Of a stretch of 64,000 bases of DNA, positions 1 to 44,413 are shown piece by piece. The DNA is taken from contig JAJQBL010000007.1 in NCBI GenBank assembly GCA_021203325.1, positions 4,285 to 68,284 on the forward strand, written 5' to 3'. Position 1 is the first letter of the stretch; every line of letters begins with the position of its first letter. The position numbers and the translations under genes were made by a program. The notes under the pieces are model-generated. The model saw only the letters and a program-made list of their open reading frames with translations. It was not told the origin of the DNA and did no database searches. This DNA comes from Clostridiales bacterium (lineage in GTDB: Bacteria > Bacillota > Clostridia > Oscillospirales > Oscillospiraceae).

Positions 1-1823
1 TCCTGCCGCGTGTACAGAAGCCTGCGCGGTACACCGGCGGAGAATATCGGGAGATTCAGAAGGACAAGGCCGAGGTGGACACCCGCTTTGCCTTCTGCTT
101 CCCGGACACTTACGAAATTGGCATGAGCAACCTGGGCATGCGCATCCTGTACGGCGTCATCAACGAGATGGACGGCGTCTGGTGCGAGCGGTGCTTCGCC
201 CCCTGGGGGGACATGGAGGAGGAGCTGCGCCGGGCGGAGCTGCCCCTCTTCGCTCTGGAATCCGGCGACCCCATCCGGGACTTTGACCTGGTGGCCTTCT
301 CCTTGGGCTACGAGATGGCCTACACCAACGTGCTGAACATGCTGGACCTGGCGGGCATCCCCCTTTACGCCGCCCAGCGGGACGAGGACTGGCCCATCGT
401 CTGCGCCGGGGGCACCTGCGCCTATCACGCGGAGCCTCTGGCCGACTTCATCGACCTCTTCTTCCTGGGAGAGGGGGAGGAGCTGGACCCGGAGGTGATC
501 GAGTGCTACCGGGCCTGCAAAAAACAGGGAAAGAGCAAGACGGAGTTTCTGGAGGAGGCGGTGAAGATTCCGGGGGTCTACGTCCCCGCCTTCTATCAGG
601 TGGCATACAACGAGGACGGCACCCTCCGCTCCATGACCCCCACCCACGGCGCCCCTGCCAGGGTGACCAAGCGCATCATCAAAGACCTGGACAGCGCCTA
701 TTACCCCACCCACACCATCGTCCCCTCCACGGAGATCGTCCACGACCGGGTGATGCTGGAGCTGTTCCGGGGCTGCATCCGGGGCTGCCGGTTCTGCCAG
801 GCGGGGTACTGCTACCGTCCCGTCCGGGCGAAAACCTCGGAGACCCTGGTGCGCCAGGGCATTGAAGCCTGCATCGACTCCGGCTATCAGGAGATGACCC
901 TGACCAGCCTCTCCTCCAGCGACTACCGCCCCCTGACCTGCCTGCTGGACGGCCTGCTGGACTACTGCGAGCCGCGGAACATCAACATCTCCCTGCCCTC
1001 CCTCCGGGCGGACGGCTTCTCCATGGGCATCATGCAGCGGCTGCAAAAGGCCCGGAAGTCCTCCATGACCTTCGCGCCGGAGGCGGGCACCCAGCGGCTG
1101 AGGGACGCCATCAACAAGAACGTGACGGAGGACGACCTGCTCCAGTCCTGCCGCACCGTGTTTCAGGGCGGGTGCAGCGCGGTGAAGCTGTACTTCATGC
1201 TGGGCCTGCCCACGGAGACGGATGAGGACGTGGAGGGCATTGCCGCCCTGGCGGACAAGGTGTTCCAGTCCTGGCGCACCTATACCCCCAACCGCTCCAA
1301 AGGGGTGCGCATCACCATCTCCACCTCCTTCTTCGTTCCCAAGCCCTTCACCCCCTTCCAGTGGGAGAAGCAGATCAGCATGGAGGAGTACCGGCGGCGG
1401 GTGAACCTGCTCCGCTCCTGCATCCACAACCGGTCCATCGTCTACAACTGGCACGACGGGGACGCCAGCTATGTGGAGGCGGCCCTGGCCCGGGGAGACC
1501 GGCGGATGAGCCGGGTGCTGGAGGAGGTCTGGCGCAGCGGCGGCAGGCTGGACTCCTGGTCGGAATATTTTGATTTTCAGCGGTGGATGGACGCCTTCCA
1601 AAAGGCGGGGCTGGACCCGGACTTCTACGCCTGCCGGGAGCGGCCCAGGTGCGAGCTGCTGCCCTGGTCGGTCAGCGACGTGGGGGTGCGGCAGGACTAC
1701 CTGTGGCAGGAGCGGGAGCAGGCCTATCGGGGGGTCATCACCCCGGACTGCCGGGTGAAGTGCATGGGCTGCGGGGCCACAAGGCTGATTCCCGGCGAAA
1801 AGTGCGACGCGGACAGGGGGTAA
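1..1823 (+). CDS. Radical SAM protein with B12-binding-like N-terminal domain (TIGR03960-like); 5' end lies outside the window
   Basis: The frame is open from nt 3 (LPRVQKPARYTGGEY...) into the 75..1823 ORF. It has the CIRGCRFC (CxxxCxxC) radical-SAM cluster motif. Family assignment is from the recalled sequence pattern. Confidence 0.85.
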   Translation, partial: LPRVQKPARYTGGEYREIQKDKAEVDTRFAFCFPDTYEIGMSNLGMRILYGVINEMDGVWCERCFAPWGDMEEELRRAELPLFALESGDPIRDFDLVAFSLGYEMAYTNVLNMLDLAGIPLYAAQRDEDWPIVCAGGTCAYHAEPLADFIDLFFLGEGEELDPEVIECYRACKKQGKSKTEFLEEAVKIPGVYVPAFYQVAYNEDGTLRSMTPTHGAPARVTKRIIKDLDSAYYPTHTIVPSTEIVHDRVMLELFRGCIRGCRFCQAGYCYRPVRAKTSETLVRQGIEACIDSGYQEMTLTSLSSSDYRPLTCLLDGLLDYCEPRNINISLPSLRADGFSMGIMQRLQKARKSSMTFAPEAGTQRLRDAINKNVTEDDLLQSCRTVFQGGCSAVKLYFMLGLPTETDEDVEGIAALADKVFQSWRTYTPNRSKGVRITISTSFFVPKPFTPFQWEKQISMEEYRRRVNLLRSCIHNRSIVYNWHDGDASYVEAALARGDRRMSRVLEEVWRSGGRLDSWSEYFDFQRWMDAFQKAGLDPDFYACRERPRCELLPWSVSDVGVRQDYLWQEREQAYRGVITPDCRVKCMGCGATRLIPGEKCDADRG

Positions 1824-3163: not shown

Positions 3164-4063
3164 ATGACGGTGCAGTGGTATCCGGGGCATATGGCCAAGA
3201 CCCGCCGCATGATTCAGGAGAATTTAAAGCTAGTGGATCTGGTGGTGGAGATCCTCGACGCACGCATCCCCGTCTCCAGCCGCAACCCGGATTTGGACGA
3301 TCTGGTGGGGGAGAAGCCCCGGCTCATCCTCCTGAACCGGGCCGACCAGGCCGACCCCGAGATGAACAGGGTGTGGGCGGACTGGTTCCGGGCCCAGGGC
3401 CTCTCCGTCCTCCAAACGGACTGCAAGACCGGGGCGGGGGTAAAGCAGTTTCCCGCCGTGGTGCGGGGCATCCTGGCGGACAAAATCGCCCGCTGGGAAG
3501 AGCGGGGCCAGGTGGGCCGCCCCATCCGGGTGATGGTGGCGGGGGTGCCCAACGTGGGCAAGTCCACCTTCATCAACCAGGTGGCCCAGCGGAAGGCCGC
3601 CGCCGCCGAGAACCGCCCCGGCCTGACCCGGGGCAAGCAGTGGGTCACGGTGGATGCCGGGCTGGAGCTGCTGGACACCCCGGGCATCCTCTGGCCCAAG
3701 TTTGAGGATCAGACCGTGGGGCTGCACCTGGCCTTCACCGGGGCGGTGAAGGATACCATTATGGACTTGGAGACGCTGGGCTGTCAGCTCATCCGCCTGC
3801 TGGCCAGCCGTTACCCGGAGGCCGTTCAGGCCAGATATAAAATCGACACGCCGGAGGACGCCCAGGGCTGGGAACTGCTGGAGGCCGCAGCCAGGAAGCG
3901 GGGCTTCCTGGTGTCCGGCGGCGAGGTGGATTTGGAGCGGATGGCAAGGGTTCTGCTGGAGGAGTACCGCTCCGGCAGGCTGGGGCGGTTCACACTGGAG
4001 GAACCGCCAGCCGGGAAAAAGGAACTCACATCGACTGAAAAGATGCAATCTATCTTGGATTGA
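3164..4063 (+). CDS. rbgA: Ribosome biogenesis GTPase A (YlqF/RbgA)
   Basis: The MTVQWYPGHMAKTRR N-terminus and circularly permuted GTPase motifs (LLNRAD ... GVPNVGKST ... DTPG) are present. The ORF-track start at 3071 adds a basic extension not expected for RbgA, so I chose the ATG at 3164. Confidence 0.9.
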   Translation: MTVQWYPGHMAKTRRMIQENLKLVDLVVEILDARIPVSSRNPDLDDLVGEKPRLILLNRADQADPEMNRVWADWFRAQGLSVLQTDCKTGAGVKQFPAVVRGILADKIARWEERGQVGRPIRVMVAGVPNVGKSTFINQVAQRKAAAAENRPGLTRGKQWVTVDAGLELLDTPGILWPKFEDQTVGLHLAFTGAVKDTIMDLETLGCQLIRLLASRYPEAVQARYKIDTPEDAQGWELLEAAARKRGFLVSGGEVDLERMARVLLEEYRSGRLGRFTLEEPPAGKKELTSTEKMQSILD

Positions 4064-4123
4064 AAGGGATAACGTAGCCTTACCGTCAGATGTCCACGAC
4101 CAAAGGATAACAAAATTGACGCC

Positions 4124-4373
4124 CCGTTCCGCCCGCCTTTGGCAGGGCGGAACGGGCGGCAATCCCCGCCAGCCGCCATCGGCGGCAGTCTCACCAGTTA
4201 GAAGTTACTTCGTCTGTTGCCTGATAGACCACTTGACGGCTGGACAGCGCGAAGCCCCAGCGGGACAAAGGGGAGGTTCTTAGGAGGGGACGCACAGCGG
4301 CCCCTCCTAAGCCGCCCTCTTTCCCCCATTTCTCGGCGGCGCGAGAAATGGGGCCCCCGGAGGGAAAGAACCT
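4124..4373. other. Cluster of GC-rich hairpins, including a ~100-nt three-way-junction-like fold, in the rbgA-rnhB spacer
   Basis: An 11-bp hairpin at 4124-4155 and a 6-bp hairpin at 4172-4186. Nested fold at 4274-4373: closing stem aggttct/agaacct encloses a 9-bp stem taggagggg/cccctccta and a 12-bp stem ccccatttctcg/cgagaaatgggg. No credible ORF. Confidence 0.4.
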
Positions 4374-8735: not shown

Positions 8736-10091
8736 ATGAGCTTAAAGAATGTCGAAACCAGGGAAAACAGCAGTGCTGTCCTGACCATTGAGGTGGACGC
8801 CGCCGCGTTCAACGCCGCCGTGGAGAAGGTCTATCGCAAGATGCGGGGCAGCATTTCGATTCCCGGCTTCCGCAAGGGCAAGGCCCCCCGCAAGATCATT
8901 GAGAAGATGTACGGCACCGGCGTGTTCTATGAGGACGCCATCAATGACCTGTACCCCAACGCCCTGGATGAGGCCGTGAAGGAGTCCGGCCTGGACGTGG
9001 TGGGCTATCCCAAGCTGAACATTGAGACGGTCAGCGCCGCCGAGGGCCTGGTGTTCACCGCCGAGGTGGGCGTCCGCCCTGTGGTGACCCTGGGCGAGTA
9101 TAAGGGCATCGCCGCCCCCAAGAGCGCCGTGGAGGTCACCGATGCCGATGTGGACAGCGAGATGCAGCCCCTGATCAGCCGCGCCACCAACACGGTGGAT
9201 GTGGACCGCCCCGCCCAGGTGGGCGACACCGCCAACATTGACTTTGAGGGCTTCAAGGACGGCGTGGCCTTTGAGGGCGGCAAGGGCGACAATTACGATT
9301 TGAAGCTGGGCTCCGGCACCTTCATTCCCGGCTTTGAGGAGCAGGTCGTGGGGATGTCCGCCGGTGAGGAGAAGGACGTCAACGTGACCTTCCCCGAGAA
9401 CTACGGCGCAGAGGAGCTGGCCGGCGCCGCTGTGGTGTTCAAGGTCAAGTGCAACACCGTGCAGGAGGAGCAGGTGCCCGTCATCGATGACGAGTTTGCC
9501 AAGGACGTCTCCGAGTTTGACACTCTGGAGGAGCTGAAGGCCGACCTCCGCAAGCAGGTGGAGGAGCGCAAGACCAAGAACGCCGAGGACGCCTTCAAGG
9601 CGGCGGTCATGACCAGGGTCATTGAGAACGCTCAGGTCGTGGCGCCCGACGCCATGGTGGAGTATGAGCTGGATAAGCAGATGGACAACTACGCCAACCA
9701 GCTGCAGGGCTCCGGTATGAGCCTGGAGCAGTACCTCCAGATGATGGGCATGAGCATGGAGCTGTTCCGTGAGCAGAACAAGCCCGGCGTGCTCCAGAGC
9801 ATCAAGTCCGACCTGGTGCTGGAGGCCGTGGTGAAGGCCGAGGGCCTGGAGGCCTCCGAGGAGGAGGTTTCCGCCGAGGTGGACCGCCTGGCCCAGCAGT
9901 ACGGCATGGAGGCGGATAAAATCAGGGAGGTCATCCCCGCCGAGAACCTGGCCAACGCCGTCAAGCTGGACAAGGCGTCCAAGCTGATCTATGACAGCGC
10001 CGTGGCGGAGGCCCCCGCCGCTGAGGAAGCTCCCGCCGCTGAGGAGGCCCCTGCTGCGGAAGAGGCTCCCGTAGAGGAAGCCGCCGAGTAA
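8736..10091 (+). CDS. tig: Trigger factor, with an acidic Ala/Pro/Glu repeat tail
   Basis: Has the ribosome-binding motif GFRKGKAP and a central FKBP-type domain. AGGAGG lies upstream of the ATG at 8736. The C-terminus reads AEAPAAEEAPAAEEAPAAEEAPVEEAAE. Confidence 0.93.
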   Translation: MSLKNVETRENSSAVLTIEVDAAAFNAAVEKVYRKMRGSISIPGFRKGKAPRKIIEKMYGTGVFYEDAINDLYPNALDEAVKESGLDVVGYPKLNIETVSAAEGLVFTAEVGVRPVVTLGEYKGIAAPKSAVEVTDADVDSEMQPLISRATNTVDVDRPAQVGDTANIDFEGFKDGVAFEGGKGDNYDLKLGSGTFIPGFEEQVVGMSAGEEKDVNVTFPENYGAEELAGAAVVFKVKCNTVQEEQVPVIDDEFAKDVSEFDTLEELKADLRKQVEERKTKNAEDAFKAAVMTRVIENAQVVAPDAMVEYELDKQMDNYANQLQGSGMSLEQYLQMMGMSMELFREQNKPGVLQSIKSDLVLEAVVKAEGLEASEEEVSAEVDRLAQQYGMEADKIREVIPAENLANAVKLDKASKLIYDSAVAEAPAAEEAPAAEEAPAAEEAPVEEAAE

Positions 10092-22619: not shown

Positions 22620-22740
22620 ACACGATGTCTTCAGGGCAGGGTGAAATTCCCGATCGGCGGTAAAGTCCGCGCGCGTAACTGCATGAACCGGTGCAACTCC
22701 GGTACCGACAGTATAGTCTGGATGAAAGAAGATGTGTTGT
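22620..22740 (+). promoter_or_regulatory. FMN riboswitch (RFN element)
   Basis: Contains the RFN core strings cttcAGGGCAGGGTGAAATTCCCGATCGGCGGTAAAGTCCGCG ... CCGGTGCAACTCCGGTACCGACAGTATAGTCTGGATGAAAGAAGA. It lies upstream of a riboflavin transporter gene. Confidence 0.9.
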
Positions 22741-41595: not shown

Positions 41596-42582
41596 ATGAT
41601 GGAACAAATTTGGCTGGAATGCAGCATCGACACCGCCCCCGGCTGCCTGGACGCCCTGGCAGCCTACCTGACCGCCTGCGGCGTGGAGGGGCTGGTGCTG
41701 GAGGACGAATCCGACTTCGCCGCCTTTGAAGACGAGAACCGCCCCTTCTGGGATGAGGTGGACGAGGCCCTGAAAGCGGAGCGCCGGGGCGTCACCCGGG
41801 CCACCTTCTACGTCACCGCCGACGAGGAGGGCCGCTGCCGCCTGGACGAGATCACCGCCGGGCTGGAGGGATTCCGCAGCCGCACCCCTCAGGACGCCGG
41901 GACCCTGGCCGTCGCCACCCGCACCTTACAGGAAGAGGACTGGGCCAACAACTGGAAGCGGTATTACAGCCCCTTCCCGGTGGGGAAGCGGCTCTACGTG
42001 GTGCCGGAATGGATGCGGGGGGAGCCTGTGCCGGAGGGCCGGACGCCCCTCTACCTGAATCCGGGGCTGATTTTCGGCACCGGGAGCCACGGCACCACCC
42101 GCTTCTGCCTGGAGGGGGTGGAGCGCTACGTCCGCCCCGGCGACCGGGTGCTGGACCTTGGGACGGGCAGCGGCATCCTCGCCATTGCCGCCCTGCGGCT
42201 GGGGGCCGCCTCCGCTGTGGGCTGCGACATCGACCCCAAGGCCACCGCCGTGGCGGCGGAGAACGCCGCCTTCAACGGCATCGGCCCGGAGCTGCGGGTC
42301 TACACCGGCAACGTCATCGGGGACAGGGACCTGCAGGCCCAACTGGCGGGCCGGTACCAGCTGGTGCTGGCCAACATCGTGGCGGACGTGATTCTGCCCC
42401 TGTGCCCCCTGGTGGGGGACTATCTGGCGGAGGGCGGCCTGTTCCTGACCTCCGGGATTCTGGAGGGCCGGGGGTCCGAGGTGGCCGACGCCCTGACCGC
42501 CAACGGCTTTGCCGTTCTGGAGCGGCGGGAGCGGGACGGCTGGGTCAGCTTCACCGCCGCGCGGAAGGGTGAAACCCCGTAA
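41596..42582 (+). CDS. prmA: Ribosomal protein L11 methyltransferase
   Basis: WANNWKRYY, FGTGSHGTT and the SAM motif LDLGTGSGILAIAA. Confidence 0.92.
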   Translation: MMEQIWLECSIDTAPGCLDALAAYLTACGVEGLVLEDESDFAAFEDENRPFWDEVDEALKAERRGVTRATFYVTADEEGRCRLDEITAGLEGFRSRTPQDAGTLAVATRTLQEEDWANNWKRYYSPFPVGKRLYVVPEWMRGEPVPEGRTPLYLNPGLIFGTGSHGTTRFCLEGVERYVRPGDRVLDLGTGSGILAIAALRLGAASAVGCDIDPKATAVAAENAAFNGIGPELRVYTGNVIGDRDLQAQLAGRYQLVLANIVADVILPLCPLVGDYLAEGGLFLTSGILEGRGSEVADALTANGFAVLERRERDGWVSFTAARKGETP

Positions 42583-42601: not shown

Positions 42602-42654
42602 GAAAAAGGCAAAAAAGAAGTGACCCGGCTCTTAACTCAGAACCGGGTCACTTC
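42602..42654 (-). terminator. Strong intrinsic terminator oriented for the minus strand (the hairpin may also stop prmA)
   Basis: 12-bp stem gaagtgacccgg / ccgggtcacttc (42617-42628 / 42643-42654). On the minus strand it is followed by TTTTTTGCCTTTTT. Confidence 0.75.
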
Positions 42655-43368
42655 TGTTCACTGTCAATTTGCAGCTTCATCCTACCGGACGCCTCCTTTT
42701 TTTCTGATTTTGTTGATGCTGACGTTCCACTTTGCCACTCTGTCCGCTGATCCTTTTGTCATTCAGCGTTTTTTTGCAGCGTACCCGCCTTTCTGAACTT
42801 ACGCTTCTCAACTGCAATTCAGGGAAGGATACGAAAGACGCTCACATGAGAGCCTGTCACGAACGGGAATTCAGCAAATGCTCTGTGGTATTCCACACCT
42901 TATTCTATGACCTTCGTATTGTCCTTTGATCGGAGCCCCGGTTTTCTGAAAACCGACACCCGAACAACTCGTTCCCGGTGACGATTGAGGCGCTTCGGAA
43001 CTGTCTGGGCGAATCCTGTACGGAACCCATCGCCGTTGCCTGTTACCTCTGCCGGTTAGTCGTCCGGTTCCTTCGGAACTGCCAATCCTGCGCGCTGTTT
43101 CTGCAACAGCCGGAACCCGGAAGGAATTCAGCGAATGCTGTGCGGCACCCCGCACCCTCTCGTGGTATCCTGCGCTCTGTGGTCACTTCTCTGGAATCTC
43201 AGCTTTCCAACCAATCGTCTGCCTGAGCGACTGGAATTGCGGAAGTGGTTCAGCGAATGCCGTACCTTGTACTGCGTCTCCTCTCTGCGCCGCCTGCGCC
43301 GCTTCATCGGCCTCAGGCTCCCGCACGCGGAGCAAATGAATCAAAGGGGAAAGTGGAAAGAGTTCGCT

Positions 43369-43925
43369 TCACCTGTACATTGGCCCGTACCTCCCGGTGT
43401 TATGGTTCTGGTGACCCAGCGGCCTAACACATCCTTTCTGTCAGCAGGTGGAAAAAAGGTGGATGGGGCTAAGCTAAACTGCACATTAGACTGTACCTCC
43501 TTATGTTATTTGCCTGGTTTCTTGAAGTCCAGTTTCATAACACATCGTCCTTTCAAACGAAAGAGGAAAAGTGGAAGGAGCTAATCAAAACTGTTCATTG
43601 GACCGTACCTCCTTGTGTTATTTGACTGCTATTTTGAAGTCCAGTTTCATAACACATCGTCCTTTCAAACGAAAGAGGGAAAGTGGAAGGGCCTAATGGA
43701 AACTGTACATTGGACTGTACCTCCTGCAATTCGAAGTCGGCGCCTTGCAATGGAGTTTCGCTTCAACAAGTCCTTTCATACAGAGAAAAGGGAACAGGCT
43801 GTTGTCGAGTCAGCTCTCGTTTTCACTGTTCTTTGGAGGGTACCTCCTTGTTTAGATTCTGCCGGTTGCCAGGGCGGCTGCCTGTCTTACGCTAGGTCTT
43901 AGGACTCTCCTCCTTCCTGTTGGAG
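43369..43925 (-). repeat. Six tandem ~106-123-nt modules (SD, mini-ORF, CU tract, hairpin)
   Basis: GGAGGTAC anchors (minus strand) at 43394, 43500, 43612, 43724 and 43847, plus a degenerate copy near 43913. An identical 45-nt core occurs at 43522-43566 and 43634-43678. Confidence 0.85.
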
Positions 43926-43954
43926 TGGATTGGGTGGTTTCTTTTGATGTATTA

Positions 43955-43983
43955 AGGATACCACAGGTCGGCCATCTTGTCAA
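43955..43983 (-). promoter_or_regulatory. Near-consensus sigma-70 promoter driving the non-coding unit
   Basis: On the minus strand: TTGACA (43983-43978), 17 nt, TGgTATCCT extended -10 (43963-43955). An A/T-rich UP-like tract lies upstream (43984-44030). Confidence 0.6.
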
Positions 43984-44151
43984 GCACTTTTTTAAATAAA
44001 AATCACAAAAATATATTAACAATTTGTGAACGATTCAAAAAACCGTTGTGTTCTCCGCCTGTTTCCGTTATAATACCAATAGCACCGAGCCACATATACC
44101 GCATCCGCCGCCTCTGCGGCCCAGATGCGCACGATCTGGAGGAAGAATCTC

Positions 44152-44331
44152 ATGGAATTGCTGAAACGGAAAATCACCTCTGCGGGCAGCGCCTGCCTGG
44201 TCTGCGGAATTATTTCCATCGCCACCGGCCTGACCACCGGCATCATCCTGCTGGCCCACGGCGGCCGCCTGCTGGCGGAGCGCCGGCACTGCGACGCTCT
44301 GCGGGAGCAGCTCTACGGCAGCGACCTGTAA
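44152..44331 (+). CDS. Small single-TM protein (59 aa)
   Basis: GGAGGA lies 8 nt before the ATG at 44152. It has the TM segment ACLVCGIISIATGLTTGIILLA. A TATAAT hexamer sits at 44069-44074. Confidence 0.45.
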   Translation: MELLKRKITSAGSACLVCGIISIATGLTTGIILLAHGGRLLAERRHCDALREQLYGSDL

Positions 44332-44378: not shown

Positions 44379-44413
44379 GTGCGGAGAAGCGGTAGTTTCT
44401 TCGCACTTTTTTT
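44379..44413 (+). terminator. Intrinsic terminator after the small membrane ORF
   Basis: Stem gtgcggagaa / ttcttcgcac (one G-U pair) followed by T7. Confidence 0.7.

Follow-up and report, generated by a model that had tools for sequence, protein, structure and literature searches.

The subject of this report is a tandem repeat array on the minus strand of a 64,000-nucleotide (nt) stretch of DNA from a Clostridiales bacterium (assembly GCA_021203325.1, contig JAJQBL010000007.1, positions 4,285-68,284 of the forward strand), hereafter called the window. It makes up the 5' half of a predicted stand-alone RNA of about 1.34 kb, which runs from about 43948 to 42611 and whose repeats are built around a strong Shine-Dalgarno (SD) sequence and very short open reading frames (ORFs). 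This RNA is a member of an apparently undescribed RNA family of gut and rumen Clostridia, for which we propose the name tandem micro-cistron RNAs. The feature is real and conserved, and its architecture appears to be undescribed within the libraries searched. Among the readings weighed below, the best supported one is that the RNA acts through translation of its micro-cistrons, to which we assign a probability of about 0.5 from sequence comparison.

A repeated 22-nt core with the anatomy of an initiation region

The coordinates of the array given by the first-pass annotation of this DNA were confirmed to the base. The anchor GGAGGTAC stands on the minus strand at 43847, 43724, 43612, 43500 and 43394, the array holding 5 of the 7 copies in the window, where 1.28 would be expected and none of 100 shuffles reached 7. 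Tandem Repeats Finder (TRF) described the array with a period of 112, 2.4 copies, 86% matches and a score of 416; the two central units are identical at 98 of 112 nt and share the exact 45-mer reported earlier (43522-43566 = 43634-43678). The four mini-ORFs MYSFH*, MNSFD*, MCSLA* and MYR* were found as annotated (Table 1), as were the replacement of AUG by AAG in the two promoter-proximal core copies (43913 and 43847), the GAAAGGA boxes at 43777, 43666, 43554 and 43438, the CTTTC-GTTT-GAAAG hairpins at 43675-43662 and 43563-43550, and the stem arms TGTGTTA/ATAACA(C/T) at 43656/43621, 43544/43509 and 43431/43403. The structural claims needed some qualification. Back-pairing of CTCCTT onto the SD exists in the 43612 module and is limited to that module. 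The outer stem is kept, but among 16 modules of three lineages its changes are all of the G-U kind, and compensatory pairs are absent. The hairpin described as enclosing a variable loop is real as a stem, the loop being a second cistron of 10 codons and the GAAAGGA box its SD. The array as a whole folded no better than its shuffles (z = 0.02).

The conserved unit is a core of 22 nt, GGAGGUAC-R-G-W-CCAAUG-N-ACAG, usually followed by UUAAG or GUAAG and preceded by A-rich sequence. It reads as a perfect 6-nt SD (GGAGGU), a fixed 8-nt spacer, an AUG, a second codon NAC and then AG. The predicted energy of the SD duplex ranges from -11.7 to -12.6 kcal/mol in the cores and amounts to -9.8 at the SD of the second cistron (SD2) and -12.2 at that of the terminal ORF. 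The frame set by the AUG is closed early: an in-frame stop falls within 5 codons in 70 of the 92 unique modules with AUG-opened cores, compared with 43 and 15 in the other two frames, and the median number of sense codons before the stop is 3 in the AUG frame versus 9 and 13 in the others. In the lineage of the window this first mini-ORF (ORF1) exceeds the MYS*/MYK* form of the lineages L007 and L008 by two codons (6 nt), with the stop still in frame.

Second and terminal cistrons

All 24 complete occurrences of GTGTTATG, found in 13 loci, open exactly 10 codons followed by TAA. The arms of the hairpin that holds this second cistron are TGTGTTAT and ATAACACA. At loci other than that of the window the encoded peptides include MKLDFKSASK, MRVAYKAPIK, MRVAFRAAIK, MRLNFKSPIK and MWYDFRSAIQ, and the decapeptide consensus is M-[KR]-[LV]-x-[FY]-[KR]-x-x-x-K. 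When the 10-codon ORFs were compared pairwise, 121 of 481 codon differences were synonymous in frame 0, and the two shifted frames gave 27 of 487 and 28 of 459; differences fell on the third codon position 345 times, compared with 227 on the first and 218 on the second, and replacements were milder in frame 0 (mean BLOSUM62 score of -0.11 versus -0.83 and -0.55).

The terminal ORF follows the same pattern. Its product MKLQIDSEQK is identical in L011, L022 and L037 despite 3-4 nt changes, all of them synonymous (CTG->TTA, CAA->CAG and AAG->AAA), and among the terminal ORFs of four lineages 12 of 19 variable columns lie at codon position 3 (P = 0.007). The terminal decapeptides are related to the internal ones, as seen on comparing MVLDFKSEQK of L007 with the MKLDFK... 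of the window, and the terminal ORF of the Lachno-A and L007-type lineages has the core itself as its initiation region. Taken together, these patterns argue that the second and terminal cistrons are under peptide-level selection, and the frame-0 synonymous excess and third-position bias place the RNA within the broad kind of small-ORF-encoding (dual-function) bacterial RNAs. The earlier suggestion of translated minigenes thereby gains real support from in-frame early stops, SD duplex energies and constrained 10-codon and terminal ORFs.

A separate observation concerns the foot of the terminator, where UGAACAGAAGUGAC(C) (window 42665-42648) is conserved across Oscillospiraceae-type lineages, including L007, L008, L029 and L030. 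The motif UGAACAGAAGUGAC repeats UG-N-ACAG of the core in another reading frame, and several lineages have terminal peptides with E-[QS]-K at the C-terminus; either the RNA or the peptide could be the constrained entity.

A possible path of ribosomes along the RNA

If the RNA acts through translation, each core would load a ribosome that translates 3-5 codons and terminates beside a pyrimidine-rich tract. This tract could pair with SD2 via CUUUC/GAAAG, and the resulting CUUUC-GUUU-GAAAG hairpin would partly mask SD2 (GAAAGGA). In the window lineage, with its modules of 106-112 nt each carrying a second cistron, the second AUG lies in the UGUGUUAUG stem arm, and the second ORF (ORF2) would then be translated into the conserved decapeptide. 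Given that the UAA of the decapeptide lies 3-5 nt before the next core, terminating ribosomes could pass to the next module. The last ORF ends inside the terminator stem. Across some 20 loci of at least 8 lineages, compared by eye, the last stop lies between about 4 nt before and about 9 nt inside that stem. A transcript of this kind would be heavily occupied by ribosomes, and would yield micro-peptides, hold initiating ribosomes, or both.

A family with one locus per genome

One genome per GTDB species (596 Gb in total) was scanned with the pattern GGAGGTACNGNCCAATGNACAG, which has 19 specified bases and for which we estimate about 4 chance matches in this amount of sequence. It yielded 38 loci, of which two are obvious chance matches inside ORFs of non-Firmicutes and 36 belong to Clostridia, many of these with tandem copies at the periods seen in the window. 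The carriers belong to Lachnospiraceae, Oscillospiraceae, Christensenellaceae and unclassified Clostridiales, and many are metagenome-assembled genomes (MAGs) from gut or rumen. A metagenome scan gave 8 further matches, of which 5 are real loci, 2 are due to chance and one is a protein gene that contains the core. Copies per locus range from 1 to 7 at a spacing of 46-70 nt or 106-123 nt (L002 has 7 copies at 53 nt), and the RNA length across the family is 0.1-1.3 kb. Putative sigma-70-type promoters matching at least 9 of 12 positions were located at 37 of 41 loci, 32 of them with a perfect TTGACA and a 17-nt spacer. Most of the 38 scanned loci close with a hairpin and U-run, while five others run off the contig end; some automatic terminator calls (for example in L013, L019, L022 and L025) were internal hairpins, and the true terminators were located by alignment.

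Only the core can be aligned between lineages, and a k-mer search outside the core returned no motif shared by most of them. The first-pass annotation had set conservation in homologous loci as a test of its modules: the SD and AUG are kept, while the stems are kept only within Oscillospiraceae-like lineages. Synteny is found only within lineages, a locus of the window type standing in a syntenic housekeeping context in 7 species, and clustering of neighbourhood proteins gave no partner or neighbour common across lineages. The same annotation had also allowed for a dispersed miniature inverted-repeat transposable element (MITE) or insertion sequence (IS) fragment. The unit lacks the many dispersed copies per genome by which a MITE, a repetitive extragenic palindromic (REP) element or an IS fragment is recognised: the core was found at one locus per genome in 36 genomes and, in the window, at this locus only. 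Scanning of viral contigs and blastn against plasmids and phages gave no matches. No Rfam 15 model matched the array in the window, whether the gathering threshold was applied or the search was relaxed to E <= 10; in homologous loci none matched at the gathering threshold on 18, and none matched the array at E <= 1 on 7. For Clostridia, the literature searched on sponges, minigenes, repeated SDs and tandem small ORFs yielded no description of the family, and we know of no counterpart to this architecture.

Several members have features of their own. In L012, a cultured Lachnospiraceae bacterium (47-T17), the whole RNA gene is present as two paralogues in tandem (3190-4200 of the locus in reverse complement), and both of them have a promoter, three cores and a terminator of their own. 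In L042 (2400-2790, minus strand) two cores 66 nt apart lie between tRNA genes, in a region with 13 tRNA genes in 5 kb and a GC content of 40% where one tRNA gene was called with an odd 4-base anticodon; this module may be co-transcribed with the tRNAs. The exact core at 10020-10041 (plus strand) of the metagenome contig L043 is the initiation region of a long ORF that by eye resembles a P-type (MgtA-like) ATPase, the only case of a core heading a normal protein gene, which may be due to chance. Lachno-A leaders (such as L004) contain a CA-rich tract CAACAACAAAACAACAGAGAC and a conserved block UUAACAUAGAUGAAAC, and the AUAGAUGAA of these leaders recurs just before the terminator in the Christensenellales-like L017. 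Two Lachnospiraceae loci, L009 (5607-5742, minus strand) and L001 (6781-6872, minus strand), have a Clostridiales-1 RNA (RF01699) close to the array RNA, this being directly downstream of the array RNA on the opposite strand in L009. A near-threshold match to STnc490, a Salmonella Hfq-binding small RNA (sRNA), at 2-109 (minus strand) of the Clostridiales MAG contig L023 (54.2 bits versus a gathering threshold of 56, E = 7.5e-8) is unrelated to the array.

Constraint beyond initiation and alternative explanations

A number of observations weigh against action through translated micro-cistrons. The substitution counts that favor peptide-level constraint are pairwise and are not phylogenetically independent. 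The peptides differ by lineage (MKLDFK..., MNMDESKE and MGQEVMDEISK), and a second cistron is missing from arrays of short period such as L002. Module 4 of the window array has lost ORF2 in all orthologues yet keeps its stem, indicating that the stem is not merely a by-product of coding. The core itself is conserved in ways that an SD and an AUG do not explain, because the positions UAC.G.CCA and.ACAG are mostly 83-99% conserved (69% for the final G), although these frequencies are partly inflated by the loci having been found with that same pattern. The variable bases of ORF1 are the first of codon 2 (Y/N/D/H) and the third of codon 3 (S/R), so that ORF1 is constrained as RNA and not as peptide. 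Copies with AAG for AUG retain the remainder of the core, and different species conserve them at fixed positions in the array. As far as such patterns go, the core is more than a ribosome-binding site.

Several candidate causes of this conservation were tried and rejected. A small hairpin GUAC(R)/(U)GNAC needs U at position 17, which is true in 42% of copies only, and a DNA-level palindrome GTACA-N6-TGTAC likewise depends on the variable position 17. Pairing of G3G4U5 with W10C11C12 needs A at position 10, true in 19% only, and no covariation was found. A resemblance to 5S rRNA (a unit of about 112 nt with GAACAG..AAGUGA) was not borne out by an Rfam search at E <= 10 that included the 5S model. 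Predicted accessibility across 74 cores revealed no special exposure, the unpaired probability of the SD being 0.24-0.46 and below the RNA average of 0.51.

The excess conservation raises the possibility that the RNA is a decoy, in which the cores mimic an initiation region and sequester a limiting factor, with the peptides as by-products. The target would be 30S subunits, 70S initiation complexes (a "ribosome trap" running short futile cycles) or a protein recognising SD-containing RNA, and the mini-ORFs would exist solely to release at once any ribosome that starts. A linear motif of 22 nt that is near-invariant across families while its surroundings diverge fits such a role, as do conserved AAG variants and SD-only copies, very strong promoters, an ORF1 without conservation at the amino-acid level and a copy number of 1-7 that varies among close relatives in the manner of redundant binding sites. 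However, a pure decoy does not predict the peptide-level constraint of the 10-codon and terminal ORFs, predicted folds give the core no special accessibility, no lineage encodes a partner protein nearby and no binder can be named from sequence. On balance we regard a decoy as rather unlikely; it stays alive because the core is conserved beyond SD and AUG, the AAG copies are kept, and RelQ exists. This small alarmone synthetase of Firmicutes needs single-stranded RNA containing GGAGG, and its natural ligand is unidentified (PMC6606846). A bolder version, which we consider unlikely, is a Csr-like titration RNA of Firmicutes aimed at the initiation machinery, which would abundantly present repeated copies that mimic an ideal initiation region. 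In that case futile cycles of 3 codons would trap ribosomes, or an SD-recognising regulator such as RelQ would be bound, thereby setting the pool of free ribosomes or the output of (p)ppGpp, and the decapeptides would be a second, lineage-specific payload.

The remaining alternatives fare less well. A base-pairing regulator or sponge, whose pyrimidine-rich, anti-SD-like tracts (CCCUUCCACUUUCCCUCUUUC) pair with the SDs of target mRNAs in the manner of RoxS/RsaE or LhrC, or whose cores soak up an sRNA of the csRNA type, would agree with the conserved CU-rich tracts of Oscillospiraceae-type modules, with an R at core position 8 that is compatible with pairing to U, and with conserved single-stranded motifs between the covarying hairpins of the 3' half; yet the CU tracts are absent from short-period (Lachnospiraceae-type) arrays, no single partner explains the variation at core positions 10 and 17, and scanning of both strands found no second locus per genome carrying the complement, making this explanation quite improbable. 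That the RNA titrates CsrA, as a Firmicute counterpart of CsrB/RsmZ, follows the analogy drawn at first pass, and in that form it is not supported: the conserved unit is a 22-nt linear motif reaching from the SD to codon 3 and not a loop-displayed A(N)GGA. GGA motifs are indeed repeated, and relative to the CsrA SELEX (systematic evolution of ligands by exponential enrichment) consensus RUACARGGAUGU the window context ACACAAGGAGGU matches at 10 of 12 positions and the SD2 AAGGAUGA of L007 and L008 at 7 of 8. By contrast, positions -6 to -1 are only A-rich family-wide (A 44-75%), the invariant block lies 3' of the GGA and extends to codon 3, GGA occurs only within GGAGGU, and predicted folds do not put it in hairpin loops; the lack of a CsrA-like ORF (by N-terminal signature) in the 64-kb window is weak evidence in the same direction. 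We therefore consider CsrA titration very unlikely. Slightly less credit still goes to a cis-acting, ribosome-dependent attenuator in which a leader peptide switches a downstream gene. Short SD-led ORFs beside hairpins and a last stop inside the terminator do recall erm/cat leaders and the 3-codon leaders of antibiotic-responsive attenuators, whereas the next gene in the window, prmA, is convergent, the downstream genes of other lineages differ or lie on the opposite strand with none in common, and an RNA of 0.1-1.3 kb with up to 7 modules does not suit such a switch. Least credible is a pseudogene in decay or a repeat that is selfish or neutral (a remnant of a MITE, REP or IS), given that the tandem arrangement and the copy number varying between relatives are countered by the single locus per genome in a syntenic context, its own promoter and terminator, its absence from the viral, phage and plasmid collections, and a core kept across families. 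Thus the interpretation made at first pass is supported in part, its minigenes gaining and its CsrA sponge losing ground, and action through translation of the micro-cistrons is the reading that we prefer.

Comparison with known systems and significance

Like CsrB/RsmZ, the RNA is stand-alone and strongly promoted, with a variable number of tandem SD-like GGA motifs; unlike them, it carries a 22-nt block of SD, spacer, AUG and codons 2/3 that opens short ORFs, some under apparent peptide-level selection. Lambda bar and rRNA-encoded pentapeptide (E-peptide) minigenes have effects that depend on translation, and the modules share with them a strong SD ahead of an AUG that opens 2-6 codons before a stop, by which they qualify as minigenes. 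They differ in belonging to a conserved chromosomal gene with up to 7 repeats and fixed nucleotides in the spacer and codons 2/3. Unlike macrolide-resistance pentapeptides, MYS, MNS, MYR and MYSFH are not conserved in amino acids and fall outside the hydrophobic consensus, so that they do not belong to that peptide class. Attenuation leaders (ermC, cat-86 and 3-codon leaders) resemble the array in their SD-led short ORF, hairpins masking the next SD or start and a stop overlapping the terminator stem; here, however, a regulated gene downstream is missing, the units follow one another in tandem and the RNA has its own terminator, which sets it apart from this class.

The Drosophila gene tarsal-less/polished rice (pri) produces one RNA with tandem 11-aa ORFs. 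The window RNA is similar in having tandem ORFs of about 10 codons on a non-coding-looking RNA and related peptides (here x-x-[DNA]-[FY]-[KRQ]), and differs in being bacterial, in its SD-driven ORFs, in the 3-5-codon ORF before each decapeptide and in that what the family as a whole conserves is the initiation site and not the peptide. Among Firmicutes, RoxS/RsaE and LhrC are C-rich anti-SD sRNAs, and SR1 and RNAIII are dual-function RNAs. With these the RNA shares small ORFs and CU tracts able to pair with SDs, and with LhrC the tandem units of about 110 nt. However, LhrC1-5 are separate genes each with promoter and terminator, compared with a single transcript here, where the SD side and not the anti-SD side is conserved. 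The antitoxins of type III toxin-antitoxin systems (ToxI and CptI), which also occur in Clostridia, are tandem direct RNA repeats followed by a terminator, although their units are pseudoknots of 36-45 nt, as opposed to repeats of 46-123 nt with ORFs. No gene for a ToxN/AbiQ/CptN-like toxin was found after the array; no ORF follows on the same strand, and there is no shared neighbour cluster.

Should the anatomy be what it seems, a strongly promoted RNA of repeated near-ideal ribosome starts and genes of 3-10 codons is present in many Clostridia of the gut and rumen, and a bacterial case of tandem micro-peptide cistrons would be added. Products of ten residues escape gene callers and most proteomics. 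The family is also a concrete candidate for a Firmicute RNA that titrates translation components or SD-binding proteins; to our knowledge, no CsrB-like sRNA is known in Firmicutes. The cultured carrier L012 offers a possible experimental system.

Layout and surroundings of the RNA

The predicted transcript and its parts are listed in Table 1. Full-length RNAs of six related species are 82-98% identical to that of the window, and the number of central modules differs among these orthologues. The promoter hexamers of the window recur in the orthologues L011, L013, L019, L022, L027 and L037 and also in L008 and L032. A search for credible ORFs in 42611-43990 found none, a 149-aa ORF called in the region being judged spurious, and indels of 1-4 nt among orthologues rule out a conserved long ORF in the 3' half. 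In the same half, compensatory changes were seen in 11 of 206 predicted pairs across the 6 orthologues (for example CUGUU/AACAG to CUGCC/GGCAG). The type-B repeats in it keep ACAG...CUUCC, with hairpins standing in place of SD and AUG, and they look like degenerate former modules that have lost SD and AUG and are yet still conserved.

Table 1. Features of the predicted RNA in the window, in order of transcription
Feature	Coordinates	Strand	Description
Promoter	43955..43983	-	TTGACA, 17 nt, TGgTATCCT (extended -10); 10/12 matches, TG present; predicted transcription start site ~43948
Whole predicted transcript	42611..43948	-	~1.34 kb, no credible long ORF
Core copy 0	43892..43913	-	Degenerate (GGAGGAGAGUCCUAAGACCUAG), AAG for AUG
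Core copy 1	43826..43847	-	AAG variant; near-identical in L037, L022, L011, L019
Core copy 2 and MYSFH*	43693..43724	-	Core 43724-43703, ORF 43710-43693; SD duplex -11.7 kcal/mol
Module 2 second cistron	43618..43666	-	SD2 GAAAGGA 43666-43660; MKLDFKIAVK* 43650-43618; start and stop fall in stem arms TGTGTTA/ATAACAC
Core copy 3 and MNSFD*	43581..43612	-	Core 43612-43591, ORF 43598-43581; SD duplex -12.6 kcal/mol
Module 3 second cistron	43506..43554	-	SD2 43554-43548; MKLDFKKPGK* 43538-43506; stop 5 nt before next core
Core copy 4 and MCSLA*	43469..43500	-	Core 43500-43479 with two mismatches; ORF 43486-43469
Module 4 box and hairpin	43397..43438	-	GAAAGGA, TGTGTTA...ATAACAC stem; without AUG or ORF, a form kept in all orthologues
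Core copy 5 and MYR*	43369..43394	-	Core 43394-43373, ORF 43380-43369
Four type-B repeats	42861..43263	-	Period 122-135 nt around ACAGCAUUCGCUGAAUUCCUUCCG, interleaved with hairpins
Terminal cistron	42648..42699	-	SD AAAGGAGG 42699-42691 (-12.2 kcal/mol); MKLQIDSEQK* 42680-42648; UGA inside terminator stem
Intrinsic terminator	42611..42654	-	17-bp stem, then U-run

In core copy 1 (43847-43835, minus strand) the usual GUCC is changed to CCUCC, giving a perfect GGAGG-UAC-CCUCC self-hairpin. This hairpin would sequester the SD of its own core, and it is kept in all orthologues.

The RNA lies between prmA (41596-42582), which is convergent with it, and, on the other side, a small membrane ORF with a gene for a Na/Pi cotransporter behind it, both divergent. 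The small ORF (44125-44331, plus strand; 68 aa) encodes a predicted small membrane protein, has a good SD and its own terminator (44379-44406), and is divergent from the RNA promoter; the region 44125-44331 is conserved in orthologous loci. Elsewhere in the window, an FMN riboswitch aptamer (RF00050) at 22623-22737 (plus strand, 108 bits) is the only Rfam match.

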